A stretch of 64,000 nt of DNA from an uncultured Actinomycetes bacterium (GCA_963705625.1 CAVPKG010000001.1:3790-67789), one strand, 5' to 3'; counted from the stretch's first letter, positions 3,375 through 59,942 are shown. Translations and numbers: made by a program. Notes: generated by a model from the letters alone, not told the origin.

Positions 3375-3404
3375 GGTGTCCAGTAAGTCCACACTTCAGC
3401 CGGA

Positions 3405-4841: not shown

Positions 4842-5387
4842 ATGCCCGTGCAGGAGGGTCCGGTCGGCCCGTTCCCCCATGGCAAGGATCCCGACGAGTA
4901 CGACCGCTTGCGCCGCCGCGTGCTCTGGACGATGCCGAGCGGGCTCTACGTGCTGGGCAGCACCGACAAGGGCGAGCGTCGGAACGGCATGACGCTGAAC
5001 TGGGTGACGCAGGTGTCGTTCGCCCCCAAGATGCTCGCGGTGGCGATCGAGCTCGGCGCGTACACGCACGAGCTCGTGTCCGACGGCCGCGTCTTCAGCG
5101 TGAACATCGTCGATCGTGAGGACCGCGCCATCGTGCGCAAGTTCACCAAGCCGGTCGAGGTCGACCTCGCGGCACAGACGCTGAACGGCGTTCCGTTCCA
5201 CGACGGCCTGTCCGGCGCGCCGATCCTCGACCAGGCCGCGGCCTACCTCGACTGCGAGGTGCGCGAGTCGGTGTCAGTGGGTGAGCACACGCTGTTCCTG
5301 GGCGAGATCGTGGACGCCGGCTTCCAGAAGCCCGAGGACACCCCTGTCCTCAGGATGGAGGACACCCGCATGAACTACGGCGGGTGA
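4842..5387 (+). CDS. flavin reductase family protein (FMN-binding split barrel)
   Basis: ORF 4842..5387 reads SGLYVLGSTDKGERRNGMTLNWVTQVSFAPKMLAVAIE...HTLFLGEIVDAG, typical of the flavin reductase-like domain. Its last 10 codons and stop are part of the tandem repeat. Confidence 0.85.
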   Translation: MPVQEGPVGPFPHGKDPDEYDRLRRRVLWTMPSGLYVLGSTDKGERRNGMTLNWVTQVSFAPKMLAVAIELGAYTHELVSDGRVFSVNIVDREDRAIVRKFTKPVEVDLAAQTLNGVPFHDGLSGAPILDQAAAYLDCEVRESVSVGEHTLFLGEIVDAGFQKPEDTPVLRMEDTRMNYGG

Positions 5388-5591
5388 TGTCGGCTGCGGA
5401 TGCGGGTGTCCGACCCGTGGTGTTGGAGGACACCCGCATGAACTACGGCGGGTGATGTCGGCTGCGGATGCGGGTGTCCGACCCGTGGTGTTGGAGGACA
5501 CCCGCATGAACTACGGCGGGTGATGTCGGCTGCGGATGCGGGTGTCCGACCCGTGGTGTTGGAGGACACCCGCATGAACGACGGCGGGTGA
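5357..5591. repeat. 68-bp tandem repeat, 3 full copies plus a diverged 31-nt partial copy
   Basis: The unit is GGAGGACACCCGCATGAACTACGGCGGGTGATGTCGGCTGCGGATGCGGGTGTCCGACCCGTGGTGTT. Copies start at 5357, 5425 and 5493, and a partial copy at 5561 has AACGAC instead of AACTAC. Each unit contains a 12-bp inverted repeat GGACACCCGCAT/ATGCGGGTGTCC. ORFs 5274..5507(-) and 5375..5575(-) are offset by exactly 68. Confidence 0.9.
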
Positions 5592-5652
5592 CGGGCAAAC
5601 GGGGTCCCGGGTACGCTCCGGCCGTCCGTCCGAGTCGCCCGTGGAGGCCTCG

Positions 5653-7285: not shown

Positions 7286-7307
7286 ACCGCGGGCAGCCTT
7301 GGCCGCG

Positions 7308-9308
7308 ATGACCCCGACGCTCGCCGAATCGGTCCTCGACCGGCTCGGCAGCGATCTCTGGCTCCTCATTCCCGCGTTCGTGTTCTCGGTGCTCGCGGGC
7401 GTCTTCGTCGGCCGGGTGCTCGGGGTCCGGCGGTCGTTTGCGGCGAGCGTGCTCTCCGGGTTCGTCGGCTTCGCGGTGGGCGTGGCGGTCTCGCTGCTGA
7501 TCGCGAACGAACGCGGCAACGCGTCCGAAGGCTTCGCCCGGAACCTGTTCCTGTTCGCGCTGTTCGGCGCGATGGCGGCGGCGGTATGGATCGAGTTCCT
7601 CTCGCGGCCCGGAATGATGGCCCGCGCGCAAACCGGCCTCGCATCGGTCCCGCACCCGGTGCGGTCCCTCCGTCGCCGCGGTCGCCGGATGGCGCGGTAC
7701 GCCGAGATCACGCGGATCGCAGTACGCAACGGCCTCGGCCCGTCGCTCGGTCTCGGCCGCCACGAAGATGTCTCCCAGAACGGCGCCAAACCGCCCACTG
7801 TGCGTCGACTCCGGCTGTCGCTCGAGCAGTGCGGCGGCATGTTCGTGAAGCTCGGCCAGATCGCTTCGACGCGCTCCGACATGCTCTCCCCCGACGCGGT
7901 CAAGGAGCTGTCGTTGCTCCAGGATCGTGTGCAGCCGGCCGCCCGCGACGATGTCGCGGCCTTGCTCGAGTCCGAGCTCGACGCGCCGCTCGAGGACATG
8001 TTCGCCACCTTCGACTGGCAGCCGCTCGCGGCGGCGTCCATCGGTCAGGTGTACCGAGCCGCCCTACCCGACGGCTCACCGGTGGTGGTGAAGGTGATCA
8101 GGCCCGGCATCGAGGAGTCGGTGGCGGTCGACCTCTCGGTGCTCGAAGAGCTCGGGCACGTCGTGGAGACGCGTACGTCGTGGGGCGCCGACTACCACGT
8201 GATGGATCTCGTCGACGAGTTCAGTTCCCGACTGCGCGAAGAGCTCGACTTCCGAATCGAAGCGCGCAATGCGCGCGCGATCGCGTCCAGCCTGCCGAGC
8301 GGATCGCGGATCTCGATCCCCGAGGTCTACGAGGAGCTGAGCACGTCGCGGGTGCTCGTGATGGAGTGGCTCGACGGCGCGAGCGTGCGCGACGTCGCCT
8401 GGGGGGATGCGCGCGCCGCGGAGCGAACCAAGATCGCCGACCTCCTGCTCCGCACGTTCCTCGAGCAGATGCTCCAGGACGGCGTGTTCCACGCCGACCC
8501 GCACCCGGGAAACGTGATGCTGCTCACCGATGGTCGCCTCGCACTGATCGACTTCGGCGCGGCGGGCCGTCTCGACTCCGTCCAGCAGGCCGCGCTCCGA
8601 GATCTCATGGCCGGTGTGAGCCGACGCGACGCCGACGCGGTGGCGCAGGCGGTGCTGCAGGTCGCGAGCCTGCGACGCGGCGTCGACATCGCCGACTTCG
8701 AGCGCGCGCTGGCGCGGTTCATGGCCCAACATCTCGCGCCCGGTGCGCGTGCCGACGCCGCGATGTTCAATGCGATGCTCCGGCTGTTCTTCGAGTTCGG
8801 CATCACGCTCCCCGCGGAGTGGAGCACGTTCTTCCGCGCGTTGATCGTGCTCGAGGGCACGCTCACGACGATCGCTCCCGGCTATTCGGTGATCGACGCG
8901 GCCGAGGCCATCGCCGCGCAGTGGGTCCGCGGGCAGATCACACCGGGATCCGTGCAACAGGCGGTGCGCGACGAGATCCTGCGCACGGTGCCGATGCTGC
9001 GGCGGCTGCCGCGTCACGTCGACCGCGCGTTCAGCATGCTCGAGCGCGAGGGGATCCGCGTGCGGGTGAGCCATTTCCAGGACGCCGACGACACCAGGTT
9101 CGTGACGACGCTCGTGAACCGCTCGATCCTCGCGTTCCTGTCGGGGACCATCGGCTTGCTGTCCGTCGGGCTGATCGCGATCGAGGGCGGTCCACCGTTC
9201 AGCGGCAATACGTCGCTCTTCCAGGTGTTCGGCTACTTCGGACTGTTCTGCTCGACCGTCCTCGCCATGCGCGTCATCGTCGCCGTCCTCCGCGACCGCC
9301 TGAACTAG
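7308..9308 (+). CDS. ABC1/UbiB (AarF) atypical kinase family protein with N- and C-terminal transmembrane segments
   Basis: ORF 7143..9308; internal ATG at 7308 lies after the upstream stop. Motifs: LEQCGGMFVKLGQIASTRSD, AAASIGQVYRA, VVVKVIRPGI, FHADPHPGNVML, LIDFGAAG. Confidence 0.85.
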   Translation: MTPTLAESVLDRLGSDLWLLIPAFVFSVLAGVFVGRVLGVRRSFAASVLSGFVGFAVGVAVSLLIANERGNASEGFARNLFLFALFGAMAAAVWIEFLSRPGMMARAQTGLASVPHPVRSLRRRGRRMARYAEITRIAVRNGLGPSLGLGRHEDVSQNGAKPPTVRRLRLSLEQCGGMFVKLGQIASTRSDMLSPDAVKELSLLQDRVQPAARDDVAALLESELDAPLEDMFATFDWQPLAAASIGQVYRAALPDGSPVVVKVIRPGIEESVAVDLSVLEELGHVVETRTSWGADYHVMDLVDEFSSRLREELDFRIEARNARAIASSLPSGSRISIPEVYEELSTSRVLVMEWLDGASVRDVAWGDARAAERTKIADLLLRTFLEQMLQDGVFHADPHPGNVMLLTDGRLALIDFGAAGRLDSVQQAALRDLMAGVSRRDADAVAQAVLQVASLRRGVDIADFERALARFMAQHLAPGARADAAMFNAMLRLFFEFGITLPAEWSTFFRALIVLEGTLTTIAPGYSVIDAAEAIAAQWVRGQITPGSVQQAVRDEILRTVPMLRRLPRHVDRAFSMLEREGIRVRVSHFQDADDTRFVTTLVNRSILAFLSGTIGLLSVGLIAIEGGPPFSGNTSLFQVFGYFGLFCSTVLAMRVIVAVLRDRLN

Positions 9309-22083: not shown

Positions 22084-22170
22084 CGGGGCCGGAAGGGACA
22101 TCGCCGGTCCAGGATAAGGACACGCTCTGAAGGTGTCCCGCTGGAGTTGTGGAGATTCGAAGGAGATCAC

Positions 22171-22223
22171 GAGCGAGCGACTGCGGGCCGGGTATCCCGG
22201 CTCGCAGCGAGCGACCCATGTGC
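22171..22223. repeat. REP/MITE-like palindromic element, solo copy 1, flanked by 10-bp direct repeats
   Basis: The element is GAGCGAGCGACT-GCGGGCCGGG-TAT-CCCGGCTCGC-A-GCGAGCGACCC. AGGAGATCAC occurs at 22161..22170 and again at 22224..22233. The right copy contains the thiQ stop codon. Confidence 0.75.
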
Positions 22224-25853: not shown

Positions 25854-26503
25854 GAGAGTGCCTTCCGTGCGTCGGGGAGTACGACGAGCAGCACGCCGTC
25901 GTCGAGCGATACCTGCGCGACCGGCTCGAGCAGCTCGTTGCTCAACCCGCGCGTCGATCCCGGCAACAGGGTCTCGCCGTGGAGCGGGAACCGGAGGCCC
26001 GTGGTGTGCACACCACGCGCCGGTCCACCGAGTGCGAACAGCGAGCACAGGTCGCCCGGCTGCCCCCTGAGCTCGCGAGCGGCGCGGACGACGAACACGT
26101 CGGCGTCGCCCACCCGCGCCTCGACGTCGAGCCCGACGAACTCGTGCGACGCGAGGAGGAGAAGGTTGGCGAGCGAGTGGTCGACGCGTCCGCCCGCGCC
26201 GCCGATCACCACCACACGCGTGCACCCGCGGTCGCGTGCCACCTGCAACGAGAGCTCGAGGTCGGTGAAGTCCTTCGCGCGGGGGTGCACGTCGACCGTC
26301 GTACCGGTGGCGGTCGCGGCGTCGAGCGCCGCAGGATCGACCGAGTCGAGATCGCCGACGACGAGCCCGACGTCGAAGCCGAGCGCGACGGCGTGGTGGA
26401 GCCCGGAGTCGGCCGCAACCACGAGGTCGGCTTCGGGCAGATCCTCGATGGCGCTCGTGGGCGGTGGATCGCCTCCTGCGAACACGAGCGCGACGCTTCC
26501 CAT
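25850..26503 (-). CDS. thiN: thiamine pyrophosphokinase
   Basis: MGSVALVFAGGDPP...DLVVAADSGLHHA...VGDLDS...KDFTDLELSL...VVIGGAGGRVDHSLANL. The ATG at 26503 is preferred over 26521 because 26521 lies inside the riboswitch aptamer. GGAGGGA sits 5 nt upstream of 26503. Confidence 0.85.
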   Translation of the reverse strand: MGSVALVFAGGDPPPTSAIEDLPEADLVVAADSGLHHAVALGFDVGLVVGDLDSVDPAALDAATATGTTVDVHPRAKDFTDLELSLQVARDRGCTRVVVIGGAGGRVDHSLANLLLLASHEFVGLDVEARVGDADVFVVRAARELRGQPGDLCSLFALGGPARGVHTTGLRFPLHGETLLPGSTRGLSNELLEPVAQVSLDDGVLLVVLPDARKALS

Positions 26504-26504
26504 C

Positions 26505-26600
26505 AGTCCCTCCGCCGGCATTACCCGGTTCAGGTTCGAGGGGTCGGCGACGCATGACGGTCGCCCTCTCAGCCCGGCTGTCCCGAGCTCCCCGGGGATT
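26505..26600 (-). ncRNA. TPP (THI-box) riboswitch
   Basis: The reverse strand reads CGGGGAGCUCGGGACAGCCGGGCUGAGAGGGCGACCGUCAUGCGUCGCCGACCCCUCGAACCUGAACCGGGUAAUGCCGGCGGAGGGA. The conserved cores CUGAGA, ACCC, GAACCUGA.CGGGUAAUGCCGGCG.AGGGA are all present and in order. It lies directly 5' of thiN. Confidence 0.8.
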
Positions 26601-26674
26601 CGGTTGTCACGTCATCGTACGCGTTGACGAGCCTGTGCCAGTGTGCGTTCTGCATCGTGGGGAATGGAGGACGG

Positions 26675-28211: not shown

Positions 28212-29443
28212 ATGCCGCTGCTCCAGAGTGCGACCGTGACCTCGCTCATGGCCGCCGCGGGTCATGAGCAACTCGTGTTCGTCGCCGACCGCGCGGTCGG
28301 GTTGCGCGGGGTCATCGCGATCCATTCGACCGCGCTGGGTCCCGCCCTCGGCGGGGTCCGGTTCTGGCGGTACGCGAGCGAGCACGACGCGGTGATCGAC
28401 GCGCTCCGGCTCTCGGAGGCGATGACGCTCAAGGCCGCGATCGCGGGCCTGCACCAGGGTGGGGGCAAGGCGGTCGTCATGTGGGACGACCCGGACCACG
28501 CGCGTCCCCCGCACTGCTCCATGCGCTCGGGCGTGCCATCGACGAGCTCGGTGGCCGCTATCTCGCGGCCGAGGACGTGGGCGCGACCACTGCCGACATG
28601 AACGGGCTCGCCGACGTCACGCCCTGGGTGACCGGTGTCGACGAGGCAAAGGGTGGGTCGGGTGATCCTTCGCCCGTCACCGCCCTCGGTGTGCTGCACG
28701 CGATGCGCGCAGTGCGCACGGCGCTCGACGGAGACGCCTCGCTCCGCGGCTGTCGCGTCGTCGTCCAGGGATCCGGTCATGTGGGCTCGCAGCTCGCGCG
28801 GCGGCTCGTCACCGCGGGCGCCGAGGTGGTGGTGTCCGACCTCTTCGAGTCGCGCGCCGAAGGACTCGCCCGCGAGCTGGGCGCCACGATGGTCGATGCC
28901 GACGACGCACTTGTCACACCCTGCGACATCCTCGCTCCGTGCGCGCTCGGCGACGTGTTCGATGACGAGACCATCCCCCGCCTCCGGTGCCGTGCGATCG
29001 TCGGCGCCGCGAACAACCAACTCGGTGTGATCGGCGCCGACCGCATGCTCGCCGCGCGCGGGATTCTCTACGCCCCGGACTTCGTCGCCAACGCCGGCGG
29101 AATCATCAACATCGCCGAAGAGTTCGTGGGCTATGACCGCGAGCGCGCACTGGCGCGGGCGGCGGAGATCGAGGGCACCACCGCGCGGGTGCTCGCGCTC
29201 GCCGACGAGCAAGACATCACGCCATCGCGCGCTGCCGAGAGAATCGCGCGCCGGCGCATCGCAGAAGAAGGAGCGAATCGCCGGTGGCTGCCCGGCGACC
29301 CCGCCGCGTGGACGAACGGCGCGCCGCTCCGTTCCCTGCGGGGCGCCCGCGGCGACGAGGGCGAGCGAAGCGAGCTGAGTCGCTCGCCAGCGAACGAACG
29401 GCCGCGAGCCGGGTATCCCGGCTCGCAGAGAGCGAGCGAATAG
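28212..29443 (+). CDS. Leu/Phe/Val (Glu/Leu/Phe/Val family) amino-acid dehydrogenase, frameshift near 28500; C-terminal ~25 codons come from a REP element
   Basis: VIAIHSTALGPALGGVRFW...AMTLKAAIAGLHQGGGKAVV is in ORF 28212. LLHALGRAIDELGGRYLAAEDVG...VVVQGSGHVGSQLA...GAANNQL...APDFVANAGG is in ORF 28481..29443. Confidence 0.8.
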
Positions 29444-29449: not shown

Positions 29450-30787
29450 CTACCGCATGTTGCCCGTGTGGCCGAGCGAGTAGCGCCCGGGCTGTGGCCA
29501 CACGGCGAGCCCATGAGGCTCCGTACCCACTGCGATCTTCGTGATCTCACCGGTGATCGTGTTGATGGCGTAGACGACGTCGTCGTAGCGACCACTGAGC
29601 CAGAGCGTGCCGCCGTCGACGCTCACGTTGCCCATGTCCGGGCTGCCGCCTCCAGGAATGTCCCACGTGACGACGACCGCGTTCGTCGCGAAGTCGATGA
29701 CCGACACAGTCCCCGGGCCGTTCTTGGTGTTGTTGCCGACGTGGTCCTGCCCACGGTTCGCGACGTATAGCTTGGTGCCGTCGCGGTTCGGGTAGAGCCC
29801 GTGCGTGCCGATTCCGGTTGTGATGAAGCCGGTCTCGGTGAAGGTGTACGGGTCGATGGTGTACACACCTCCACGCATCATCTCGGCGACGTAGAAGGTC
29901 TTGCCGTCGGGTGCGACGCGGATGTCCTGCGGCATGCCTCCACCGCTGAGCGTCAGGTAACCCATCACGGTGTGATTCACCGTGTCGACCTTGACCAGGC
30001 TGCCGTTGAACTCGCAGGTGAAGATCGCGAACTTGCCGTCGATCGAGAAGTCGGCGTGGTTCACGCCCGCGCAGTCGGGCACAGCGAGCGACTCCCGCAG
30101 TTGCATCGTGTGTGGATCGCGGAAGTCGAGGCGCTTGAGCGCCTCGGCCACGACGATGGCCGACTTGCCGTCCGGGGTGAAGTACATGTTGTAGGGATCG
30201 TCCACCGGGATCGAGGCGCCCGGCCTGCCGGTGTTCGGATCGATCGGTGTCAGGGTGCCGTCGGTGCGTCCTTCGGCGTTGTTGGTGACCCAGAGCGTCT
30301 TCAGGTCCCACGAGGGGACGACGTGCTGCGGGTTGACGCCCACCTTGAAGGTATCGACCACCTGCATGGTCGCGGGATCGATCACCGAAACGTCGTTCGA
30401 GCGGCGGTTGGGCACGTAGACGCGCGAGAGCGCGCCCTCCACCGCCGGACTCAACTTGCCGGCACCCGCGTCGGAGTACAGGTTGTTCGGATCGGTCACC
30501 GCGGGCATGCCGGGGATCGTGTCGATCTTCTTGGGGCTCGTCGACGACGGCGGGGTGGTCGTCCCACCCGACGTGGTCGTCCCGCCCGACGTGGTCGTCC
30601 CTGCGGTCGCCGTCGTCGTGGTGGACTGCGCTTGCGTACCGCCGTTCCCACCGCTGCATGCGACCGCGACGAGGCCGAGGATCGTGGCCGCCACGATCAG
30701 CCGTCGTGCCCACCGCAGATCGGCGCTCGCCAGCAAGCGACGCACCCTACGCGGCGCGGTCCGCCACGCGGTGGCGCGAAGGCACAC
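29450..30787 (-). CDS. YncE/YVTN-type beta-propeller lipoprotein with Thr/Gly-rich linker
   Basis: A lipobox LVAVACSGG and linker TTTTATAGTTTSGGTTTSGGTTT are followed by repeated ...YV.N..SN.VSVID... blades (YVPNRRSNDVSVIDPAT, LYVANRG...VSVIDFAT). The gene is intact; the true start may be internal. Confidence 0.75.
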   Translation of the reverse strand: MCLRATAWRTAPRRVRRLLASADLRWARRLIVAATILGLVAVACSGGNGGTQAQSTTTTATAGTTTSGGTTTSGGTTTPPSSTSPKKIDTIPGMPAVTDPNNLYSDAGAGKLSPAVEGALSRVYVPNRRSNDVSVIDPATMQVVDTFKVGVNPQHVVPSWDLKTLWVTNNAEGRTDGTLTPIDPNTGRPGASIPVDDPYNMYFTPDGKSAIVVAEALKRLDFRDPHTMQLRESLAVPDCAGVNHADFSIDGKFAIFTCEFNGSLVKVDTVNHTVMGYLTLSGGGMPQDIRVAPDGKTFYVAEMMRGGVYTIDPYTFTETGFITTGIGTHGLYPNRDGTKLYVANRGQDHVGNNTKNGPGTVSVIDFATNAVVVTWDIPGGGSPDMGNVSVDGGTLWLSGRYDDVVYAINTITGEITKIAVGTEPHGLAVWPQPGRYSLGHTGNMR

Positions 30788-44085: not shown

Positions 44086-44761
44086 GTGCCCACCGTCGTC
44101 CGTCTCCGCTCCGCCGTCTGCCTGCTCGATCGCTTTCCCGCCCTCGCCGGGGTCGATCTCGACCTCGCCGCGGGTGAGATCGTGCTGCTCTCGGGCGCGA
44201 ACGGCGCCGGCAAGACCACGCTGCTGCGCCTCCTCGCGGGTCTCGTGCCGCTGCTACTCGGGTGAAGCGGTGGTCCTCGACTGCGATCTCGCGCGCGATC
44301 GGAGGAGCGCCCGCCGCGAGCTCGCGCTCGTCGGGCACGAGACGTTTTGCTACGACGACCTCACCGTGCGCGAGAACCTGCGGTTCGCGGCACGCGCCGC
44401 GGGACGGGATGCTGCCGCGGCGGACGACGCGCTCGAACGGGTCGGGCTCGCGGGCGCACGCGACGTGCAGCACCGCAAGCTGTCGGCCGGGCAGCGCCGA
44501 CGGCTGTCGCTCGCGGTGGCGTGGTCACGTGCCCCGAAACTGCTGCTGCTCGACGAACCGCATGCCGGGCTCGACGCCGAGGGCCGCGCAGTGCTCGACG
44601 AGATCGTGAAGGCCGCGCCGAGCGAGGGCCGCAGCGTGCTCATCGCGTCGCACGAACTCGACCGCACCCGCGCCCTCGCGAACCGCGAAGTCGTACTGAC
44701 CGCCGGCCAGGCGGCGGGCGGGGTATCCCCGGACGCAACGAGCGAGCGAGTAGTCAGGTGA
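44086..44761 (+). CDS. ccmA: heme exporter ATP-binding protein CcmA, frameshift near 44255
   Basis: GTG 44086 gives [51 protein letters not shown] (ORF 43894..44265). [12 protein letters not shown]...[12 protein letters not shown]...VLIASHE follows in ORF 44060..44761. Confidence 0.8.
44717..44757. repeat. REP/MITE-like element, partial solo copy 3, inside the ccmA 3' end
   Basis: GCGGGCGGGG-TAT-CCCCGGACGC-AAC-GAGCGAGCGAG-TAGTCAGG. It shares the right half (GAGCGAGCGA.TAGTCAGG) with copy 2. The stem has 2 mismatches. Coordinates are +/-2. Confidence 0.55.
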
Positions 44762-50629: not shown

Positions 50630-50640
50630 AGGAGCAGGAG

Positions 50641-50686
50641 CGAACGTCCGCGAATCGGGGTATCCCCGATTCGCAGTGAGCGACCC
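50641..50686. repeat. REP/MITE-like palindromic element, solo copy 4 (perfect 11-bp stem), flanked by 9-bp direct repeats
   Basis: CGAACGTCC-GCGAATCGGGG-TAT-CCCCGATTCGC-AGT-GAGCGACCC. GAGCAGGAG occurs at 50632..50640 and again at 50690..50698. Confidence 0.8.
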
Positions 50687-51451: not shown

Positions 51452-52237
51452 ATGGGTGACACCGGGTTGTTCGGGCCCGACAGTGTGGCGTGGCACATTC
51501 ACGCCGATCCCGTGATGCTCATCGGCGGGATGCGCGCCCTGCTCGTGCAGGCGCTCGAACCGCGCGCGATGGCGGCGGTCGACCAGCACAGCAAGTTCCG
51601 CGAAGATCCGTGGGGTCGGCTCGAGCGCACCACGAGCTTCGTCATGAACACGATCTACGGCGACACCGCCGCCGCCGAAGCCGCGTGCGAACGCGTGCGC
51701 AAGGTGCATTCACGCATTCACGGCATCGACCCGGTCACGGGTCGCGCGTACGCCGGTAACGACCCCGACCTCCTGCTGTGGATCCACGCGGTCGAGCTCG
51801 AGTCGTTCGTCCTCGTGTACCGCACGTACGCGGGACGGCTGTCGGAGGAAGACGCCGACCGCTACGTGGTCGAGATGGCGCGCGTCGCCGAGATGGTCGA
51901 GTTGCCCGCGCAGTTGGCACCGCAGTCGATGGGTGAGGTGCGCGAGTACCTGAGGTCGGTGCGCCCCACGTTGCAGGCCACGCCGGCCGCGTTCGACGGC
52001 CTGCGCGTCGTCCTGTTCCCGCCGATGCAACTCGCGTACCGCCCGTTGTGGGTCATCCCCACGACGGCTGCGGTCGCGATCCTCCCGCGGTACGCACGCC
52101 GCATGTACCGGCTGCCGTGGATCCCGGGCGCGGGGCTGCCGGTGAGGGCGGCGATGTATCCGCTCAGTCGGGCGCTGAACTGGGTGACGCCGACTCCGCC
52201 GATCGTGCGCGCGGCCTACGAACGCGTCGCCGCCTGA
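51452..52237 (+). CDS. oxygenase MpaB family / DUF2236 protein
   Basis: MGDTGLFGPDSVAWHIHADPVMLIGGMRALLVQALEPRAMAAV..HS.F..DPWGRL.RT. It is the last 261 codons of ORF 51104..52237. Confidence 0.7.
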   Translation: MGDTGLFGPDSVAWHIHADPVMLIGGMRALLVQALEPRAMAAVDQHSKFREDPWGRLERTTSFVMNTIYGDTAAAEAACERVRKVHSRIHGIDPVTGRAYAGNDPDLLLWIHAVELESFVLVYRTYAGRLSEEDADRYVVEMARVAEMVELPAQLAPQSMGEVREYLRSVRPTLQATPAAFDGLRVVLFPPMQLAYRPLWVIPTTAAVAILPRYARRMYRLPWIPGAGLPVRAAMYPLSRALNWVTPTPPIVRAAYERVAA

Positions 52238-53078
52238 CGAACCACGCGACGGCGCCCCCGATCAGCGCGAGCACGAGGATCACGCCGAGCACGTCGTTCG
52301 GCACGTCGAGCAGCTTGAGCCCGGAGAGCACGAGCACGAGCGCGAGCACGGGACGGATGAGGTCGTCGGGCGCGCGGGACGACACGTGCGCGCCGAGGAT
52401 CACTCCCGGGATGCTTCCGAGCAGGAGCGAGGTCGTGATATCGAGCTCGAAGTCGCCCCAGAGAAGGTGACCGACGGCGGCTGCGGTCACGAGCGGGACG
52501 GCCTGCACGAGGTCGGTGCCGACGAGCTCCCTCGCCGAGAGCATCGGGTACAGCAGCATCATCGCGACGATCATCAACGAGCCGGATCCCACCGACGTCA
52601 TCCCGACCACGAAGCCGCCGACCAGGCCGACGGTGAGCGTCGCGACCCGTCGTACGGGGACCCGTTCGGCGGCGTCACCTTCGAGGATGCCGATGTGGCG
52701 GCTGCCGATGTACCAGCGCACGATCATCGCCGCCGCGGCGATCAACAGCACGACACCGAGGATCACCTTGATCGTGTCGCCGACGTCGTCGCCCATGTGC
52801 GAGATCACGTATGAGCCGATCAACGCGCCCGGCACCGAGCCGAGCATGAGCCAGCGCACGAGACCCATGTGCACCGTGCCGCGGCGGAAGTGGATGCCGC
52901 CGCCGATCGGCTTCATCACCACCGCGGCCACGAGGTCGCTCGACACCGCGGTAAGCGGCTCGATGCCGAAACCGATGACGAGGACCGGCGTCATGAGCGC
53001 GCCCCCACCCATGCCGGTGAGGCCGACCACGAAGCCGACGATCAGGCCGGCGAGCGCGATGCCGGGATCGATGTTCAC
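52164..53078 (-). CDS. sulfite exporter TauE/SafE family membrane protein
   Basis: GLIVGFVVGLTGMGGGALMTPVL and VGLVGGFVVGMTSVGSGSLM show the duplicated TauE motif. The 3' end overlaps the convergent MpaB gene by ~74 nt. Confidence 0.8.
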   Translation of the reverse strand: MNIDPGIALAGLIVGFVVGLTGMGGGALMTPVLVIGFGIEPLTAVSSDLVAAVVMKPIGGGIHFRRGTVHMGLVRWLMLGSVPGALIGSYVISHMGDDVGDTIKVILGVVLLIAAAAMIVRWYIGSRHIGILEGDAAERVPVRRVATLTVGLVGGFVVGMTSVGSGSLMIVAMMLLYPMLSARELVGTDLVQAVPLVTAAAVGHLLWGDFELDITTSLLLGSIPGVILGAHVSSRAPDDLIRPVLALVLVLSGLKLLDVPNDVLGVILVLALIGGAVAWFVRRRRVRRPRARSAESASPSSAPD

Positions 53079-53148
53079 GAACCTGCGGCCTCCACCTCAT
53101 CAAGCTGACCGACGAAGTGAACAATGTAGGGTTCGCGCGCCACAGAAT

Positions 53149-53535
53149 GGGTCGCTCACGGCTCGCCGGGATACCCCGCTCGCTCGCGTTCGCTCCCGTG
53201 TGCTGGGTCGCTCACGGCTCGCCGGGATACCCCGCTCGCTCGCGTTCGCTCCCGTGTGCTGGGTCGCTCACGGCTCGCCGGGATACCCGGCTCGCTAGCG
53301 TTCGCTCCCGTGTGCTGGGTCGCTCACGGCTCGCCGGGATACCCGGCTCGCTGGCGTTCGCTCCCGTGTGCTGGGTCGCTCACGGCTCGCCGGGATACCC
53401 GGCTCGCTCGTCGTGTTCGCTCCCGTGTGCTGGGTCGCTCACGGCTCGCCGGGATACCCCGCTCGCTAGCGTTCGCTCCCGTGTGCTGGGTCGCTCACGG
53501 CTCGCCGGGATACCCGGCTCGCTAGCGTTCGCTCC
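53149..53535. repeat. tandem array of 7 REP/MITE-like units (period 56 bp, one of 59)
   Basis: The unit is GGGTCGCTCACGGCTCGCCGGGATACCCCGCTCGCTCGCGTTCGCTCCC plus linker GTGTGCT. Unit starts are 53149, 53205, 53261, 53317, 53373, 53432 and 53488. The units are in reverse orientation relative to solo copy 4. The array ends at the rrf2 GTG. Confidence 0.9.
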
Positions 53536-53991
53536 GTGAACGTCACGGCCAAGACCGACTATGCGGTGCGGGCGGTAGCCGAGCTCGGTGCGGCCGAGGG
53601 CGCGCTGGTGAAGGCCGACCGCATCGCCGAGGCGCAGGGCATCCCACGCCACTTCCTCGACAACATCCTCAACGACTTGCGCCGTGCCGGAATCGTGAGC
53701 ACGCAGCGCGGCGCCGAGGGCGGCTCGCGGCTCGCGCGTCCGGCGAAGGACATCACGCTGGCCGACGTGATGCGCGCGATGGAAGGTCCGCTCGCGGCGG
53801 TGCGCGACGTGCGACCCGAGAACCTCGCCTACGACGGCGCGGCCGAGTCACTGCCCCAGGTATGGATCGCGGTGCGCGCCGCGTTGCGCAACGTGCTCGA
53901 GCATGTCACCGTCGCCGACGTCGTGGCGGGCAAGCTGCCACGTTCGGTCGAGCGACTCCTCGACGACCCCGAGGCTTGGAAGCCACACTGA
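53536..53991 (+). CDS. Rrf2 family transcriptional regulator
   Basis: MNVTAKTDYAVRAVAELG...ADRIAEAQGIPRHFLDNILNDLRRAGIVSTQRGAEGGSRLARP. Confidence 0.85.
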   Translation: MNVTAKTDYAVRAVAELGAAEGALVKADRIAEAQGIPRHFLDNILNDLRRAGIVSTQRGAEGGSRLARPAKDITLADVMRAMEGPLAAVRDVRPENLAYDGAAESLPQVWIAVRAALRNVLEHVTVADVVAGKLPRSVERLLDDPEAWKPH

Positions 53992-54008
53992 ACGGCGGCA
54001 GCTGACGC

Positions 54009-54609
54009 ATGGACCGGAACGAGTGGAACGAGCGGTACCGATCGACTGAGCTGGTCTGGTCGGCCGAACCCAACCGGTTCGTCGTCGCCGAGGTCGCCGA
54101 CCTCGAGCCCGGGCGTGTGCTCGATCTGGCCGCGGGGGAGGGACGCAACGCGATCTGGCTCGCCGAGCAGGGCTGGCGCGCAACCGCCGTCGACTATTCG
54201 GACGTCGCGCTCGACAAGGCGCGGGAACTGGCGGCCCGGCGGGGCGTCGAGCTCGTCACCGCGCTCGAGGACGTGACCACATTCAGTCCGAGCCCCGGCG
54301 CCTACGAGCTCGTGCTCGTCGCGTACCTGCAGCTCCCCGAGCCCGATCGTTCGGCCGCACTGGGGCGCGCGGTCGACGCCGTCGCCCCCGGCGGCACGCT
54401 GCTCGTCATCGCGCACGACGAAGCGAACATCGAACGGCGGGTACGGCGGCCCGAAGGATCCGGCGGTGCTCGCGTCGCCGGACCAGGTTGCGGCAATCGT
54501 GTCCGAGCTGGAGGTCGTCAAGGCCGAGCGGGTCGAGCGCTCGGTTGACACGCCCGACGGTCCGCGTGTCGCGATCGACCATGTCGTCCGCGCCCACCGA
54601 CCCCACTGA
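54009..54609 (+). CDS. class I SAM-dependent methyltransferase, frameshift near 54430
   Basis: RVLDLAAGEGRNAIWLAEQGWRATAVDYS...GGTLLVIAHD is in ORF 54009. GGPKDPAVLASPDQVAAIVSELEVVKAERVER... follows in the third frame, ending at TGA 54607. Confidence 0.7.
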
Positions 54610-54623
54610 CGCGGAAGCAACGA

Positions 54624-55238
54624 GTGAGCACGATCGAGGTGTTCGCCGACGTGTGTTGCCCGTTCACTCATGTCGGGCTGCGCCGCGTGGTTCGCCGTCG
54701 GACCGACGTCGGGCGAGACGACGTGGCGCTCGTCGTGCGAGCGTGGCCGCTCGAGCTGGTGAACGGCGTCCCACTCGATCCCGACTCGATCGCGACACAC
54801 GTGGCGGAGCTGCGGGAGAGCGTCGCGCCCGACCTCTTCGTTGGATTCGATCGTGCCAAGTTCCCTGCGTCGTCGTTGCCCGCGCTCGAGCTCGCGGCGG
54901 CGGCGTACGCGACCAGTACCGCCGTCGGGGAACGCATCAGTTTGTCGCTGCGGACCGCGCTCTTCGAGGAAGGCCGCGACCTCGGCGACGCCGGTGTGCT
55001 CGATGCGATCGCCGCCGAGCACGGGGTGCAGGTGCAACGCCCGGTCGCGCGCGACGCGGTGCTGGCCGACTGGCGGGAAGGTGTGCGTCGCGGCGTCCGC
55101 GGGTCGCCGGAGTTCTTCGTGGAGGGTCATGGCTACTTCTGTCCGGCTCTCGACATCACGAGCTACGACGGAGAGCTGACGATCGCCTACGACGCCGCGG
55201 GATTCGAGTCGTTCCTCGCCGCCTGTTTCGCGTCGTGA
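54624..55238 (+). CDS. DsbA-like thioredoxin-fold protein
   Basis: IEVFADVCCPFTHVGL...VRGSPEFFVEG. This is ORF 54624..55238 and it is intact. Confidence 0.6.
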   Translation: MSTIEVFADVCCPFTHVGLRRVVRRRTDVGRDDVALVVRAWPLELVNGVPLDPDSIATHVAELRESVAPDLFVGFDRAKFPASSLPALELAAAAYATSTAVGERISLSLRTALFEEGRDLGDAGVLDAIAAEHGVQVQRPVARDAVLADWREGVRRGVRGSPEFFVEGHGYFCPALDITSYDGELTIAYDAAGFESFLAACFAS

Positions 55239-55256
55239 ACCAGGCTGACGAGATCG

Positions 55257-55544
55257 TTACTCGGGCGGCGGTTCGATCATCACGCGTGTCGCGACGTCGG
55301 GGTGACGTTCCAGCCACTGCCGCGCGAACGGGCAGCGCGGTACGAGAGTGAGGCCGTGCTCGGCTGCGAAGTCCACAGCCGCGGTGACGAGCGCGCCGCC
55401 GACTCCCTGACCCTCGAGCTCGTCGGGCACTCCGGTGTGCACGAGCACGAGCCGGTCGCCGTGACGCCGGTAGGTGAGCTCGGCGGTGTGACCGTCGGCG
55501 GTCGTCTCGAAGCGTCGAGCAGCCTCGTTGTTCGTGATCGCCAT
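55257..55544 (-). CDS. small GNAT family N-acetyltransferase (YjdJ-type)
   Basis: RRFETTADGHTAELTYRRHGDRLVLVHTGVPDELEGQGVGGALVTAAVDFAAEHGLTLVPRCPF. Confidence 0.8.
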   Translation of the reverse strand: MAITNNEAARRFETTADGHTAELTYRRHGDRLVLVHTGVPDELEGQGVGGALVTAAVDFAAEHGLTLVPRCPFARQWLERHPDVATRVMIEPPPE

Positions 55545-55633
55545 GAGGCGTCACGATATGCACCCGCCGGCGGGTACGCCGGCCCGGTCGGTAGCGATCG
55601 CGCGGCAAGGAGATCGGGCGCGGAGGGGCCGAC

Positions 55634-56335
55634 ATGGGCGGAACGAAGGCCCTCGGGAGTCGCCTCGCGGCGGCTTCGCTCGTCATGACCGCGTTGGTGC
55701 TCGGCGCGGGAGCGTCGTCGGCATCGGCAGCCGCGCTTGTCGTGAAGGGCACGCTGCACGTCGAGTACGACGCCAATGGCACCTTCAACCAGGTCGATCA
55801 GGCGGGGAGCAACAAGACGACATCGCAGGCGAACGTCAACTGGGAGACGAGCTCCGACATCCCACTCCCAGGAAACGGTCAGTACCGCTACTCGAAGAAG
55901 AAGACGGGAACCATCACTGCATCCGCAACGCTCACGGCGGCCGGCGTCAACTGCACGGGTGACCTGTCGATCGCAAGCGCCAACGGGATCGAAAACGTCG
56001 GACAGTTCGAATTCGATTACGGCAAGAAGGGCCAGACCCTCACCAACCAGGGCACGTTGAAAGGTGTGAGCCCAGTGCCCGTCAACACCGGCTTCGTCGG
56101 TCAGTTCACCGACGCGAACGGTACGGGGTGCTCGGGCTACGAACCGGTCGTCAGCGTCGGCTCGTCGCCGGAGGAGACCGAGGGCACGATCGTGCTGAAG
56201 GTCGATCTCGACAAGCTCAACAAGAGCAAGTCGAAGTCGAAGACGTACACGGTGGGACTCACCAAGACCTACGACGCGTCCTACAAGACCGACGTGAGCT
56301 GGAACGGCACGGTCGTTGTCACCCTGAAGAAGTAG
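55634..56335 (+). CDS. secreted hypothetical protein, Lys/Thr/Asn-rich, compositionally atypical
   Basis: The signal peptide is ...LVMTALVLGAGASSASAAALV. The mature part is rich in K, T, N and S (KKKTGTITASATL, KLNKSKSKSKTYTV) and has many A/T-ending codons, unlike the neighbours. Confidence 0.6.
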   Translation: MGGTKALGSRLAAASLVMTALVLGAGASSASAAALVVKGTLHVEYDANGTFNQVDQAGSNKTTSQANVNWETSSDIPLPGNGQYRYSKKKTGTITASATLTAAGVNCTGDLSIASANGIENVGQFEFDYGKKGQTLTNQGTLKGVSPVPVNTGFVGQFTDANGTGCSGYEPVVSVGSSPEETEGTIVLKVDLDKLNKSKSKSKTYTVGLTKTYDASYKTDVSWNGTVVVTLKK

Positions 56336-57587
56336 GGCGCGACTCGGGCGGGATGATGATGCGGTTGCCGCGGTCCCACGTGAGGTAGTTCCACACCCAG
56401 TTCACGAACACCACGAGACGGTTGCGGAACCCCACGAGGAACACCAGGTGCAGGCCGAGCCAGCTCAACCACCCGAGCGTGCCACCGAGCCGGATCCCGA
56501 GTGGTAGCTCGGCGACGGCAGAACGTCGCCCGATCGTGGCCATCGTTCCCTTGTCGACGTAGCGGAAGCGCCGAGTCTTCCGACCCCGGATGCGTCTCGT
56601 GATCGTCCGCGCCACGTGCCGTGCCTGCTGCATCGCCACGGGCGCGAGCTGCGGATACCGACGGCCCCTTCGGTCGGTCGCGCCGGCCAGGTCGCCGATC
56701 ACGAAGACCTCGGGACGGGTCGGAACGCTGAGATCGTCGCCCACTTCGATCTCGCCGCGCCGGGTCTGCGGCAGTCCCAGCTGGTTCGCGAGCGGGTTGG
56801 CCTTCACGCCCGCGCACCAGATCACCACGCAACTGGCGATCCGCGTGCCGTCGGCGAGCGTGACCCCGTCGGAATCGACGGACGCGATCGGCGTGTCGAG
56901 CCGGATCTGCACGCCGCGCGCTTCCAGCTCGCGCACTGCCTCGGCCTGTGATCGCGCCGAGAAGGTGTTGAGGAGCGTGCCGGAGGCCTCGACGAGGACG
57001 ACCTCGGCACGATCGATGCCGAATGTGACGAAATCCTTGGCGAGCACCTTGGTGAACAATTCAGCGAGCGCGCCGCTGAGCTCCACTCCGGTTGGGCCGC
57101 CTCCCGCGACGACGACGCGGAGGATCCCGCGATCGATGAGCGCCGGATTCCGGTCGGCCGCTTCGAACTGGCGCAACACCGTGATACGTACGTGGATCGC
57201 GTCTGCGAGGGATTTCAGTGGCAGCGCGTGCTCGCGGACGCCCGGCACGCCGAAGTCGCCGCTGACCGCGCCGGCCGCGAGGACCAGGTAGTCGTACGCG
57301 ATCGGATCGCCGTCGGCGAGGACCACGCGACGGGCGTCGAAGTCGATACCGGTGACGCGACCCATGTGGAACTCGGCGTTGCGCTCTCGTCGGACGACGC
57401 CGCGCACGCTGGGCGCGATGTCGTCGGGCGCCACTCCCGCGGTCGCGACCTGGTAGAGCAAGGGCGAGAAGGTGTGGAAGTTGTGCTGGTCGATCAAGGT
57501 GACGTCCACCGGCTCGGCCCCGAGCGAGCGAACGGCGGTGAGCCCGCCGAACCCGGCACCGATGACCACGACGTGAGGCCGATCCAT
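56319..57587 (-). CDS. ndh: type II NADH dehydrogenase (NAD(P)/FAD-dependent oxidoreductase)
   Basis: MDRPHVVVIGAGFGGL, VVVAGGGPTGVELSG and VFVIGDLA are present, with a C-terminal membrane-anchoring helix. This is the last 422 codons of ORF 56319..58289. Confidence 0.85.
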   Translation of the reverse strand: MDRPHVVVIGAGFGGLTAVRSLGAEPVDVTLIDQHNFHTFSPLLYQVATAGVAPDDIAPSVRGVVRRERNAEFHMGRVTGIDFDARRVVLADGDPIAYDYLVLAAGAVSGDFGVPGVREHALPLKSLADAIHVRITVLRQFEAADRNPALIDRGILRVVVAGGGPTGVELSGALAELFTKVLAKDFVTFGIDRAEVVLVEASGTLLNTFSARSQAEAVRELEARGVQIRLDTPIASVDSDGVTLADGTRIASCVVIWCAGVKANPLANQLGLPQTRRGEIEVGDDLSVPTRPEVFVIGDLAGATDRRGRRYPQLAPVAMQQARHVARTITRRIRGRKTRRFRYVDKGTMATIGRRSAVAELPLGIRLGGTLGWLSWLGLHLVFLVGFRNRLVVFVNWVWNYLTWDRGNRIIIPPESRPTSSG

Positions 57588-57641
57588 AGCCGAAGTATTC
57601 CCCGCGTCGGTACACGGAATAGCCTTCGAGAAAAGGTGACG

Positions 57642-59942
57642 ATGAACGATCGCAAGGAGCGCGTCATGGCGGAGAGCGTCGGGCCCACCACGCCCACCGA
57701 GCTCGTCGAGGCGGTGTACGCACGGTTTCCCAAGGCGTTGGGCGACGCCCGCCGGCGCCTCGGGCGTCCGCTGACCTTTGCCGAAAAGGTGTTGTTCGCC
57801 CACGCCGACGACCCTGCAACCGTCGGCATCGAACGTGGCGTCGACTACGCCGACTACCGCCCCGACCGGGTGGCGATGCAAGACGCCACCGCGCAGATGA
57901 CGATGCTCCAGTTCATGACCGCGGGGCTGCCACGCGTGCAAGTGCCCACCACGATCCATTGCGACCACCTCATCCAGGCTCGCGTGGGCGCCGACATCGA
58001 TCTCCGCAGCGCGCTCGACGTGAACTCCGAGGTCTACGAGTTCCTCCGTACGGTGTCGGCGAAGTACGGCGCCGGGTTCTGGAAGCCGGGCTCCGGCATC
58101 ATCCACCAGGTCGTGCTCGAGCAATACGCGTTCCCGGGCGGGATGATGATCGGCGCCGACAGCCACACGCCCAACGCCGGTGGCCTCGGCATGGTCGCCA
58201 TCGGTGTAGGCGGCGCCGATGTGGTCGACGTGATGGCCGGCTGGCCGTTCAACACGCGCGTCCCGCGGGTCATCGGCGTACATCTCCACGGGGAGCTGTC
58301 AGGCTGGGCCGCGTCGAAGGACATCATCCTCAAGGTCGCCGGCATCCTCACCGTGAAGGGCGGTACCGGCGCGATCGTCGAGTACTTCGGCGAGGGGGCG
58401 GAGTCGATCTCGGCGACGGGCAAGGCCACCATCTGCAACATGGGCGCGGAGATCGGAGCGACCTGCTCGCTGTTCGGCTACGACGCGCAGTCGGCCGCGT
58501 ACCTGAAGGCCACTGGACGCGAGGCGATCGCCGATCTGGCCGACACGCACGCCGAGCACCTCCGCATCGACAAAGAAGTGGTCGCCGATCCCGAGCGGTT
58601 CTTCGACCGCGTGATCGACATCGACCTCGACGAGCTCGGGCCTCACCTCGTGGGTCCGCACACGCCGGACCTCGATCGTCCGATCGCCGACGTCGGCAAG
58701 GCCGCGCACGAGGAGGACTACCCGGTCAACATCCGGTACACGCTCGTCGGTTCGTGCACGAACTCTTCGTACGAAGACATCGGACGCGCCGCCCACGTTG
58801 CCCGGCAGGCGCACGCGGCGGGACTCACCGTGAAGGCGCCGCTCCTCATCACGCCGGGATCGGAGCAGGTGCGCGCGACGATTCAGCGCGACGGCCTCCT
58901 CGACGACCTCGAAGCGATCGGCGCCACCGTGCTCGCGAACGCGTGTGGCCCCTGCATCGGCCAGTGGCAGCGCGACGACATCGAAAAGGGTGAACGCAAC
59001 ACGATTGTGTCGTCGTTCAACCGCAATTTCCCCGCGCGGAACGACGGCAACGCCGCGACACTGTCGTTCATCGGCTCGCCCGAGACCGTCACCGCGATGG
59101 CGTTGACGGGACGGCTCGATGTCGACTTCGTGCACGAGCCGCTGGAGGCGCCCGACGGTACGAAGGTGCTGCTCGAGCCGCCGGTAGCCGACCAGCTGCC
59201 GACGAAGGGATTCGACCCCGGCGAGTCCGGCTTCGTCGCACCCGCCGACGACCCCACCACCGTCGAGGTGATCGTCGAACCCGATTCCGAACGGCTCGAG
59301 CTGCTCGAACCGTTCCCCGCGTGGAACGGGCGTGATCTCACCGGTGTGCGAGTGCTGGCGAAGACGGTCGGCAAGACCACCACCGACCACATCTCGCCGG
59401 CCGGCCCCTGGCTGCGATACCGGGGCCACCTCACCAACATCTCCGGCAACCTGTTCAGCGGGGTGAACAACGCGTTCGCGCTCGATGCGCCCGGCATGGG
59501 CATCGACGCGCGCGACGGATCCGTGAAGCCGTTGCCCGACCTTGCCCGCGAGTACAAGAAGGCCGGCATCCAGTGGATCGTCGTCGGCGACGAGAACTAC
59601 GGCGAGGGATCGTCGCGTGAGCACGCAGCGATGGAGCCGCGCTTCATGAACGGCGTGGCCACCATCGCACGGTCGTTCGCCCGCATCGCGGAAGTGAACC
59701 TCAAGAAGCAGGGCATGCTCGCGCTCACGTTCACGAACGCCGACGACTACGAGCGCGTGCTCGTCGACGACGTCGTCGACATCGTCGGCCTCACCGACCT
59801 CGCGCCGGGCAAGTCGGTGAAGGTCGTGCTCCACCACGCCAACGGCACCACCGACCAGATCACGACCGCGCACACCATGTCCGACGAGCACATCGCCTGG
59901 TTCCGCGCCGGCTCGTCACTCAACGTGCTCCGCGGAGGTTGA
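57642..59942 (+). CDS. acn: aconitate hydratase, mitochondrial-type (~766 aa)
   Basis: LTFAEKVLFAHADDP..., DRVAMQDATAQMTMLQF, GSGIIHQVVLEQYAFPGGMMIGADSHTPNAGGLG, GSCTNSSYEDIGRAA, ANACGPCIGQW and GDENYGEGSSREHAA are present. The gene is intact. ORF 57192 upstream of 57642 is antisense to ndh. Confidence 0.9.
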   Translation: MNDRKERVMAESVGPTTPTELVEAVYARFPKALGDARRRLGRPLTFAEKVLFAHADDPATVGIERGVDYADYRPDRVAMQDATAQMTMLQFMTAGLPRVQVPTTIHCDHLIQARVGADIDLRSALDVNSEVYEFLRTVSAKYGAGFWKPGSGIIHQVVLEQYAFPGGMMIGADSHTPNAGGLGMVAIGVGGADVVDVMAGWPFNTRVPRVIGVHLHGELSGWAASKDIILKVAGILTVKGGTGAIVEYFGEGAESISATGKATICNMGAEIGATCSLFGYDAQSAAYLKATGREAIADLADTHAEHLRIDKEVVADPERFFDRVIDIDLDELGPHLVGPHTPDLDRPIADVGKAAHEEDYPVNIRYTLVGSCTNSSYEDIGRAAHVARQAHAAGLTVKAPLLITPGSEQVRATIQRDGLLDDLEAIGATVLANACGPCIGQWQRDDIEKGERNTIVSSFNRNFPARNDGNAATLSFIGSPETVTAMALTGRLDVDFVHEPLEAPDGTKVLLEPPVADQLPTKGFDPGESGFVAPADDPTTVEVIVEPDSERLELLEPFPAWNGRDLTGVRVLAKTVGKTTTDHISPAGPWLRYRGHLTNISGNLFSGVNNAFALDAPGMGIDARDGSVKPLPDLAREYKKAGIQWIVVGDENYGEGSSREHAAMEPRFMNGVATIARSFARIAEVNLKKQGMLALTFTNADDYERVLVDDVVDIVGLTDLAPGKSVKVVLHHANGTTDQITTAHTMSDEHIAWFRAGSSLNVLRGG

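Follow-up and report, generated by a model that had tools for sequence, protein, structure and literature searches.

Start-site minisatellites that arise from small interspersed repeats are well known in the mycobacteria, mainly as typing markers. Mycobacterial interspersed repetitive units (MIRUs) insert at start codons, where the open reading frame (ORF) of the MIRU is coupled to the gene with a −4 spacing (PMC12548453), and their properties, including a unit range of 40-100 bp, have been summarized elsewhere (PMC3184786). A similar arrangement is described here for a 64,000-nucleotide (nt) stretch of DNA from an uncultured Actinomycetes bacterium (GCA_963705625.1 CAVPKG010000001.1:3790-67789), hereafter called the window, in which an array of seven head-to-tail repeat units lies between a gene for a TauE/SafE-family exporter and a divergent gene for an Rrf2 regulator. 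The array is best explained, with a probability of roughly 0.72, as a lineage-specific, MIRU-like minisatellite that sits at the start of rrf2 and derives from a dispersed ~48-nt hairpin repeat family of Acidimicrobiia. This estimate concerns what the array is and where it is located. As to its role, the array is most likely a tolerated selfish insertion, or passenger, rather than a regulatory device or a binding platform.

Tandem Repeats Finder (TRF) reports one strong array at 53148-53535, with a period of 56, 6.9 copies, 96% matches, and a score of 700. Splitting the sequence at GGGTCGCTCACGG sets the unit boundaries, and the consensus unit is GGGTCGCTCACGGCTCGCCGGGATACCCGGCTCGCTAGCGTTCGCTCCCGTGTGCT. 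The array and its units are as follows.

53149-53535, plus strand: tandem array of seven head-to-tail units (TRF, exact splitting, and covariance model R1)
53149-53204, plus strand: unit 1, 56 nt
53205-53260, plus strand: unit 2, 56 nt
53261-53316, plus strand: unit 3, 56 nt
53317-53372, plus strand: unit 4, 56 nt
53373-53431, plus strand: unit 5, 59 nt
53432-53487, plus strand: unit 6, 56 nt
53488-53535, plus strand: unit 7, truncated, with its CC-GTG running into the rrf2 start codon

Each unit scores 55-72 bits with covariance model R1, and the first 28 nt of the unit have seven matches in the window against 0 expected (100 shuffles). The units abut, carry the same 7-8 nt linker, and have no spacers between them. 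They vary at three places: CCCGG alternates with CCCCG, the motif T[C/A/G]GCG occurs as TCGCG, TAGCG, or TGGCG, and unit 5 has a 3-nt insertion. Because the units differ, the array is not a trivial stutter, a point that had already been made in an earlier reading of the same DNA (the sequence-only reading). That reading had also placed the array at the same coordinates, with the same period, unit count, and single 59-nt unit, had listed the same variants, and had noted that the last unit ends at the start codon. TRF and exact splitting confirm all of these details, and the last unit indeed runs into the GTG.

The exact position of the array becomes apparent when the locus is compared with those of related genomes, whose loci are numbered with the prefix L. 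The features that matter for this comparison are listed below.

53079-53148, no strand assigned: unique 70 bp equivalent to the entire ancestral tauE-rrf2 spacer, with the conserved motif ...GACGAAGTGAACAATGTAGGGT (aligned to the 62-64 bp spacers of L001, L003, L005, L038, and L039)
53123-53132, both strands: overlapping −10-like hexamers from the spacer alignment, with TAGGGT at 53127-53132 (plus strand, facing rrf2) and TACATT as the reverse complement of 53123-53128 (minus strand, facing tauE)
52164-53078, minus strand: tauE/safE-family exporter gene, PF01925, E = 9e-48, with a GTG start and GGAGG upstream, divergent from rrf2
53536-53991, plus strand: rrf2, 151 amino acids (aa), intact, PF02082, E = 2.9e-35, with a GTG start
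53541-53546, minus strand: GTGACG (reverse complement of CGTCAC, rrf2 codons 2-4), the counterpart of a −35-like TTGACG in L001

In the relatives' alignment, a conserved spacer block, CGAC(T/C)GACGAAGTNAACAATGTAGGGT, is followed by 9 nt and then by the ATG of rrf2. The whole block is kept at 53079-53148, and the array lies downstream of its conserved motif, at the rrf2 start codon. Homology to L001, as seen by BLAST, stops at 53137 and resumes at 53537. The relatives' junction reads ...TAGGGT-N9-ATG AAC GTC, whereas the window reads ...TAGGGT-N14-ATG|GGTCGC...[array]...GCTCC|GTG AAC GTC, and on these grounds the array sits between the old start-codon position and codon 2 of rrf2. The present GTG forms the end of truncated unit 7 (...CTCC(C)GTG) and stands where all orthologues have ATG.

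This arrangement alters how the intergenic region should be viewed. The sequence-only reading had identified the flanking genes correctly (TauE on the minus strand and Rrf2 on the plus strand), as matches to PF01925 and PF02082 confirm. It had also proposed that the repeats fill the whole divergent promoter region, and that both promoters and any Rrf2 operator must lie within the repeats or have been replaced by them. Neither of these two proposals survives the comparison: the array covers 387 of the 457 intergenic bp, the other 70 bp correspond to the relatives' complete spacer, and the conserved motif is retained upstream of the array together with that whole spacer. An Rrf2 operator inside the units was considered separately and dropped; the unit shows no resemblance to the conserved spacer motif.

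The −10-like hexamer motif is identical in six of six aligned tauE-linked spacers; TAGGGT and TACATT are treated here as putative promoter elements. A promoter scan of L001 finds TTGACG-18-TACATT on the minus strand (one found versus 0.0 expected), a promoter-like site for tauE whose −35 lies in rrf2 codons 2-4. In the window, the corresponding GTGACG is now ~400 bp from TACATT instead of 18 bp. A sigma-70 consensus scan of the window locus that required both hexamers found no promoter-like site.

The site is empty in every relative examined. The closest relatives, L001 and L002, have Rrf2 proteins with 97% identity and DNA with 88-91% identity, and they lack the array; no genome closer than about 88-91% nucleotide identity was found. 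Divergent tauE-rrf2 neighbors with a 62-64 bp spacer and no repeat occur in L001, L002, L005, L038, L039, and L041, and a shorter spacer of ~46 bp is found in L004 and the P0005 contig, which have no tauE. Short contigs with 92-94% identical Rrf2 have spacers of 46-63 bp and likewise carry no repeat. Furthermore, a one-genome-per-species scan gave no locus with seven matches, and a metagenome scan for the left junction of the array gave one low-GC chance match (L037) with no tandem repeat. The Rrf2 orthologues are 151 aa long, with up to 97% identity at full coverage, and the closest come from metagenome-assembled genomes (MAGs) of Acidimicrobiia. Judging by the source names of the closest proteins and loci, the host appears to be a member of this class. 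Look-ups for exact matches to the Rrf2 and TauE proteins of the window retrieved no record.

The tauE gene varies among these relatives in its own right. It is cleanly absent in L004 (L004:9941-10001 compared with L003:9096-10001), and L003, which is near-identical to L004, keeps tauE although no gene is called there. The JGI contig that carries P0005 is also without tauE, and both there and in L004 an mpaB-like gene abuts the rrf2 spacer (~46 bp).

Evidence that the array belongs to a larger family comes from the window itself, where nhmmer and covariance model R1 recover four further copies.

22169-22217, minus strand: solo copy, stem with one mismatch; R1 72.1 bits; flanked by an exact 10-bp direct repeat, AGGAGATCAC (plus strand)
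29390-29438, minus strand: solo copy, perfect 10-bp stem; R1 65.7 bits; ~11-14 nt past the stop codon of minus-strand gene 29450-30787
50636-50686, minus strand: solo copy, 11-bp stem with compensatory changes; R1 66.3 bits; flanked by a 9-bp direct repeat, GAGCAGGAG
44702-44748, minus strand: degenerate copy; R1 25.9 bits, E = 0.003

With three good copies and one weak one, the earlier suggestion that the units belong to an interspersed, hairpin-bearing repeat family with solo copies in the window stands. The copy at 50636-50686 is situated between ppiA, whose ATG it precedes by 20 nt, and a tetratricopeptide repeat (TPR) gene. It offers a second orthologous site at which presence and absence can be compared: this site is filled in the window and in L004, and empty in L005 and L003. 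At the same site, L003:7790-7830 has a ~21-bp tandem duplication (GTGCCGAGTTCTCCCTGA / GTGCCGAATTCCCCCTGA) instead of the family element of L004.

Beyond the window, a one-genome-per-species pattern scan, with an exact pattern that covered the array units and the solo copies, returned 31 loci, one of which (L009) is a chance match. Nearly all belong to MAGs of Acidimicrobiia, Actinomycetes, or Actinomycetota, with a single MAG contributing 14. The family core is ~48 nt long and has the form GGGTCGCTCRCTGC-[stem]-GGGATACCC-[stem]-GCGGCCGYTCGCTCC, followed by a variable tail of 6-9 nt. In the family alignment across genomes, the GGGATACCC loop is invariant and the flanks are conserved. The stem is maintained by compensatory change, with 88% of cells paired and 6 of 13 pairs changing on both sides (in 29 cells); its covariation score was reached by 0 of 500 shuffles, and slid controls were 36-50% paired.

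Two subtypes can be distinguished. Type A, to which the solo copies of the window belong, has a perfect stem of 10-11 bp. Type B, to which the array belongs, has a CT/TC internal loop at pairs 8-9 (2x2) and is also present in L003, L004, L007, L008, L011, L012, L022, L023, L027, L030, and L035. Elsewhere in the family, head-to-tail triplets occur in L006, L010, and L017 and pairs in L022, L027, L028, and L034; the seven units in the window form the largest array seen. The sequence-only reading had suggested that the solo copies might have been amplified from the array. This view is unsupported: the solo copies have intact 10-11 bp stems near the consensus, the array represents a derived, decayed subtype, and the family is spread over many MAGs that lack the array.

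Direct repeats of at least 8 nt (8-10 bp) flank 4 of 41 loci, compared with 3 of 238 controls, and these four are the window copies at 22.2 kb and 50.6 kb, L008, and L033; the array at rrf2 is flanked on both sides by just TG. Rfam returned nothing relevant at E ≤ 1 for 52000-55000, and plasmids and phages gave no match to two array units.

Several individual copies show features of their own. In L008:4767-4898, a tRNA-Thr(TGT) gene has a family copy 8 nt downstream of it. An association with tRNAs was entertained and then dropped, as neither the window nor the surroundings of the other copies that were checked contain a tRNA. The sequence CTCCTGCAC(C)AT precedes this L008 copy and also the copies in L026 and at window position 22217, where ARAGORN finds no tRNA. 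In the MAG GB_EKS_MAG_00042 (L007, L011, L023, L030, L031, and L035), the type B core is embedded in a longer repeat, ...CGACTCCGCTCCGCCGTCCCGCTCGTCCGGAT.. core ..GTGCACGGCTCCGCTTCGTCTCCT..., and some family copies may be modules of a larger element. Four loci (L015, L019, L021, and L029) are in MAGs titled 'uncultured Bifidobacteriaceae', for which a GC content of 71-73% is odd, and this assignment may be unreliable.

The positions of family copies relative to genes provide additional insight into the rrf2 insertion. Fourteen other copies, in reverse orientation, precede a gene start by 0-22 nt, and in two cases Pfam confirms the adjoining start as the true N-terminus: TatD, 1 nt away (L036), and TsaD, 4 nt away (L032). 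Other copies reside within coding sequences, in frame and with Pfam domains matching on both sides. These are found in a NarL-type response regulator (L012:2012-2059, residues 96-112), a GHMP kinase (L014:7324-7372, residues 183-199), and the linker of an extracytoplasmic function (ECF) sigma factor (L020:1161-1208, residues 113-128), and all three are reversed with respect to the gene. No stop codon occurs on the forward strand of the consensus core, and in L013 and L032 an open frame that runs across the element terminates in an ATGA or GTGA overlap with the start lying downstream. The family appears to tolerate translation. Two stricter rules were tried and abandoned. Coupling of ORFs does not hold as a family rule, with L010 and L033 not fitting (the real YajQ start in L033 is 50 codons downstream of the element), nor does a strict rule of orientation, as both orientations occur relative to neighboring genes.

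A plausible history of the locus can be assembled from these comparisons. One family copy would have landed exactly at the rrf2 start codon and would then have been amplified head-to-tail to seven units, presumably by slippage or unequal exchange. The ancestral 70-bp spacer with its putative divergent promoter is still intact on the tauE side, and the Rrf2 reading frame is untouched, beginning now at the GTG that comes from the truncated last unit. The tauE gene keeps its −10-like box and Shine-Dalgarno (SD) sequence but has lost its ancestral −35 region, and its expression may have changed.

How rrf2 might be expressed depends on two further features.

53147-53539, plus strand: ORF through the whole array, from ATG 53147 over 130 codons to TGA 53537-53539, which overlaps the rrf2 GTG as GTGA
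53523-53528, plus strand: TAGCGT in unit 7, a TANNNT (−10-like) hexamer that precedes GTG 53536 by 7 nt, read from the sequence

The first of these features is listed as an ORF at 53117-53539, with Met 11 at 53147, and it matches no Pfam family. Its frame is the only open one of the three forward frames. Frame arithmetic based on the unit splitting suggests that TAG variants in units 3, 6, and 7 account for the closure of the other two; units 2 and 5, where a TAG would be in frame, carry TCG. The TAGCGT hexamer, whose promoter role is conjectural, is also found in units 3 and 6; the corresponding positions of units 1, 2, 4, and 5 read TCGCGT, TGGCGT, or TCGTCG.

No SD sequence precedes rrf2 in the window or in the relatives whose start contexts were compared. 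In mycobacterial leaderless translation, a 5'-terminal ATG or GTG suffices, and a −10 box rather than an SD sequence precedes leaderless genes (PMC4633059). The rrf2 genes of the relatives are probably near-leaderless as well, since a conserved −10-like box is followed by 9 nt and no SD sequence is present. Two routes to Rrf2 can therefore be envisioned for the window. In one, the old promoter would transcribe the array, and translation of the 130-codon ORF would end in GTGA and lead to termination-reinitiation at rrf2. In the other, a new leaderless transcript would begin downstream of the TAGCGT hexamer that lies 7 nt before the GTG. Each route taken on its own is doubtful at best.

A number of observations weigh against this interpretation as a whole or against its individual steps. 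The copy number of the array rests on a single assembly. The ATG at 53147 may come from the element and not from the ancestral start, as ATG|GGTCGC is common at the 5' end of family members. The first route is weak at its first step: ATG 53147 is 14 nt after TAGGGT and has no SD sequence, so it probably lies 6-8 nt inside the transcript, neither at the 5' end nor SD-led, and for this reason initiation of the array ORF is doubtful. Moreover, the open frame could be a matter of chance, with a likelihood of ~0.1 (1/3 for the frame multiplied by ~0.29 for none of the three TAG-bearing units being in frame). The second route involves one isolated TANNNT hexamer that lacks both a −35 and a TG extension, and the proposed transcription and translation of the array are predicted from sequence. 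Coupling is also not family-wide, as the downstream gene in L010 has its own SD sequence 55 nt after the array. Finally, the orientation of the rrf2 array is atypical, in that the copies 0-22 nt from a gene start are nearly all reverse.

Several other explanations must be weighed against the passenger interpretation. An unlikely, though by no means negligible, alternative is that the insertion cripples rrf2, and perhaps tauE, as a mildly harmful or neutral lesion that has become fixed in the lineage or in part of the population. The start codon would then have been parted from a near-leaderless promoter, and the GTG would be used inefficiently. The absence of an SD sequence before GTG 53536, the retention by all relatives of an ATG 9 nt after TAGGGT, and the displacement of the −35-like box of tauE are consistent with such damage, as is the dispensability of tauE in those relatives that lack it (L004 and the P0005 contig). 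However, Rrf2 is encoded by an intact ORF of full length and shares 97% identity with the closest orthologue. The insertion has also preserved codon 2 onward and supplied a legitimate start codon and a GTGA overlap, as expected of insertions that survive selection. The same overlap invites the more adventurous idea, to which we give only a slight chance, that the array makes the Rrf2/TauE pair a contingency (phase-variable) locus with a copy-number-dependent switch. Gain or loss of a 56-nt unit (2 mod 3) would shift the array ORF out of the GTGA frame and alter the spacing between the −10 and −35 of tauE. It is true that the period is not a multiple of three, that only one frame is open and the stops in the others come from a polymorphic TAG position, and that the copy number of MIRUs changes at a rate of ~2.7e-3 per locus and year (PMC3635867). 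Set against these points, no second genome with the array was found and no variation was observed, translation of the array ORF is itself doubtful, and the differences among units at 2-3 positions indicate an array that is not freshly homogenized.

The two remaining alternatives concern whether the array is real at this length and whether it is selected. If a short repeat had been inflated by the assembler, the true locus would have fewer units or one; seven units with four variant combinations and a 3-nt insertion in a fixed order do not form the pattern of a collapse or stutter, and family arrays of 2-3 units recur in independent assemblies, several of them named like long-read bins. The apparent source in an uncultured member of the Acidimicrobiia, the fact that a 387-bp array of 56-bp units exceeds short-read length, and a second near-perfect tandem array in the window at 5356-5591 speak for such an artefact, which we nevertheless regard as improbable, and to much the same degree as the switch. 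Most remote is a selected platform, with operator-like sites for Rrf2, a nucleoid protein, or an enzyme like the REP-associated tyrosine transposases (RAYTs; REP, repetitive extragenic palindromic), or with insulating hairpins. Across genomes, the family loop and flanks do not vary and the stem covaries, which suggests recognition by some factor, and the minus-strand (antisense) RNA of the array is more structured than shuffled sequence (z = −4.4). But no relative needs a platform at the rrf2 locus, and the element is generic, lying beside unrelated genes (tatD, tsaD, ppiA, and sigma factors) or inside coding sequences, which undercuts the multi-site Rrf2 binding platform that had been suggested earlier. 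The 49-nt palindromic element of the sequence-only reading is likewise not seen in the array, where pairing is limited to a 6-bp hairpin, GCCGGG-ATA-CCCGGC. This hairpin is decaying, with an internal loop in all units and a C·C mismatch in three (units 1, 2, and 6), and single units fold unremarkably (z = −0.8 to −2.6). Sense RNA of the entire array is comparable to shuffled sequence in its folding (z = −0.10), and the proposal that a stack of hairpins acts on the rrf2 transcript to insulate the two genes is therefore unsupported. A tblastn search of 360 kb of family loci with an IS200 TnpA query, a weak test, found no Y1 transposase (best E = 0.34).

Several other features of the window lie outside the array. 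The second tandem array, at 5356-5591, has a period of 68, 3.5 copies, and 99% matches. Its unit combines the final ~27 nt of gene 4842-5387 (...EDTRMNYGG*) with the 41 nt that follow, and within it a 12-bp inverted repeat (GGACACCCGCAT/ATGCGGGTGTCC) extends across the stop codon; the sequence of this array is unrelated to that of the rrf2 array. Positions 1-8000 of the window have a GC content of 63%, compared with 68-71% across the rest. The sole Rfam family at gathering score in the window is a thiamine pyrophosphate (TPP) riboswitch (RF00059) at 26490-26604 on the minus strand, with 59.6 bits. Between the rrf2-linked methyltransferase and aconitase, ~3 kb (54612-57654) are not present in L001; this segment contains genes for a DsbA-like protein and a GNAT acetyltransferase, an ORF of 233 aa whose first-position GC is low, and a stretch that matches the NDH-2-like gene region of L003/L004.

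For the rrf2 locus itself, the passenger interpretation carries a modest message, in that both the regulator gene and the control region upstream of it remain intact and the array is probably along for the ride. The interest of the finding rests mainly on the family-level parallel with MIRUs and less on this locus. Selfish repeats of this kind are already known, and what is new is an unrelated-looking family with the habits of MIRUs in another actinobacterial class, which provides a second system in which the movement and the start-codon tolerance of such repeats can be studied. There is also a practical warning for annotation, as arrays of this type can shift start codons and create spurious ORFs of 130-140 aa in Acidimicrobiia MAGs. 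A bolder proposal, with a small chance of being right, is that the family is an Acidimicrobiia counterpart of MIRUs that tolerates translation, and that unit gain and loss toggle GTGA coupling at rrf2 in a minisatellite-driven phase switch. If so, elements that land at start codons or in frame would survive since ribosomes read through them and reinitiate, and changes in unit number would alter the level of the Rrf2 regulator and of the divergent TauE exporter. A second, independent MIRU-like family would then allow comparative genomics to seek the machinery that moves such elements.

Among described repeat systems, several resemble the family in part. [quoted passage not shown] The label given at first to the units was REP. 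In REP/RAYT systems, the palindrome carries a conserved tetranucleotide of the GT[A/G]G type at its 5' end. Like REPs and their composite forms (bacterial interspersed mosaic elements, BIMEs, and REPINs), the family is a short, GC-rich, extragenic, multicopy hairpin whose stem is kept by compensatory changes. Unlike REPs, it has no GTAG-type tetranucleotide next to the stem, its consensus begins with GGGTCGCTCRCTGC, and its conserved flanks are direct repeats (TCGCTC on both sides) outside the palindrome. Furthermore, all family clusters seen are arranged head to tail and not as the inverted doublets of REPINs and BIMEs.

Miniature inverted-repeat transposable elements (MITEs) such as Correia/NEMIS and enterobacterial repetitive intergenic consensus (ERIC) sequences are similarly small, noncoding, and dispersed, and some family copies have direct repeats of 8-10 bp. 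The family differs from them in having no convincing terminal inverted repeats (its ends match at 5 of 9 positions) and no target duplication in most copies. The MITE label was therefore not adopted, as target-site duplication is not a family rule (4 of 41 loci). Rickettsia palindromic elements (RPEs) provide the parallel for family copies that lie in frame in coding sequences, in linkers or loops (for background, see PMC3184786). However, RPEs are 100-150 bp long and are not reported as tandem arrays, and the array ORF is not fused to Rrf2, stopping instead at its start codon.

The comparison with MIRUs extends furthest, and it too has boundaries. The host is apparently a member of the Acidimicrobiia and not of Mycobacterium, the rrf2 array is between divergent genes and not inside a co-directional operon, and the 4-nt overlap is seen in few family copies (the window, L013, and L032) and not in L010. 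The family is therefore at most a MIRU analogue and not a member sensu stricto, likened by behavior and not by sequence alignment. The behavior nonetheless corresponds in many respects. [quoted passage not shown] Finally, as with MIRUs, the insertion is at a start codon, and the ORF of the repeat overlaps the start of the gene by 4 nt.

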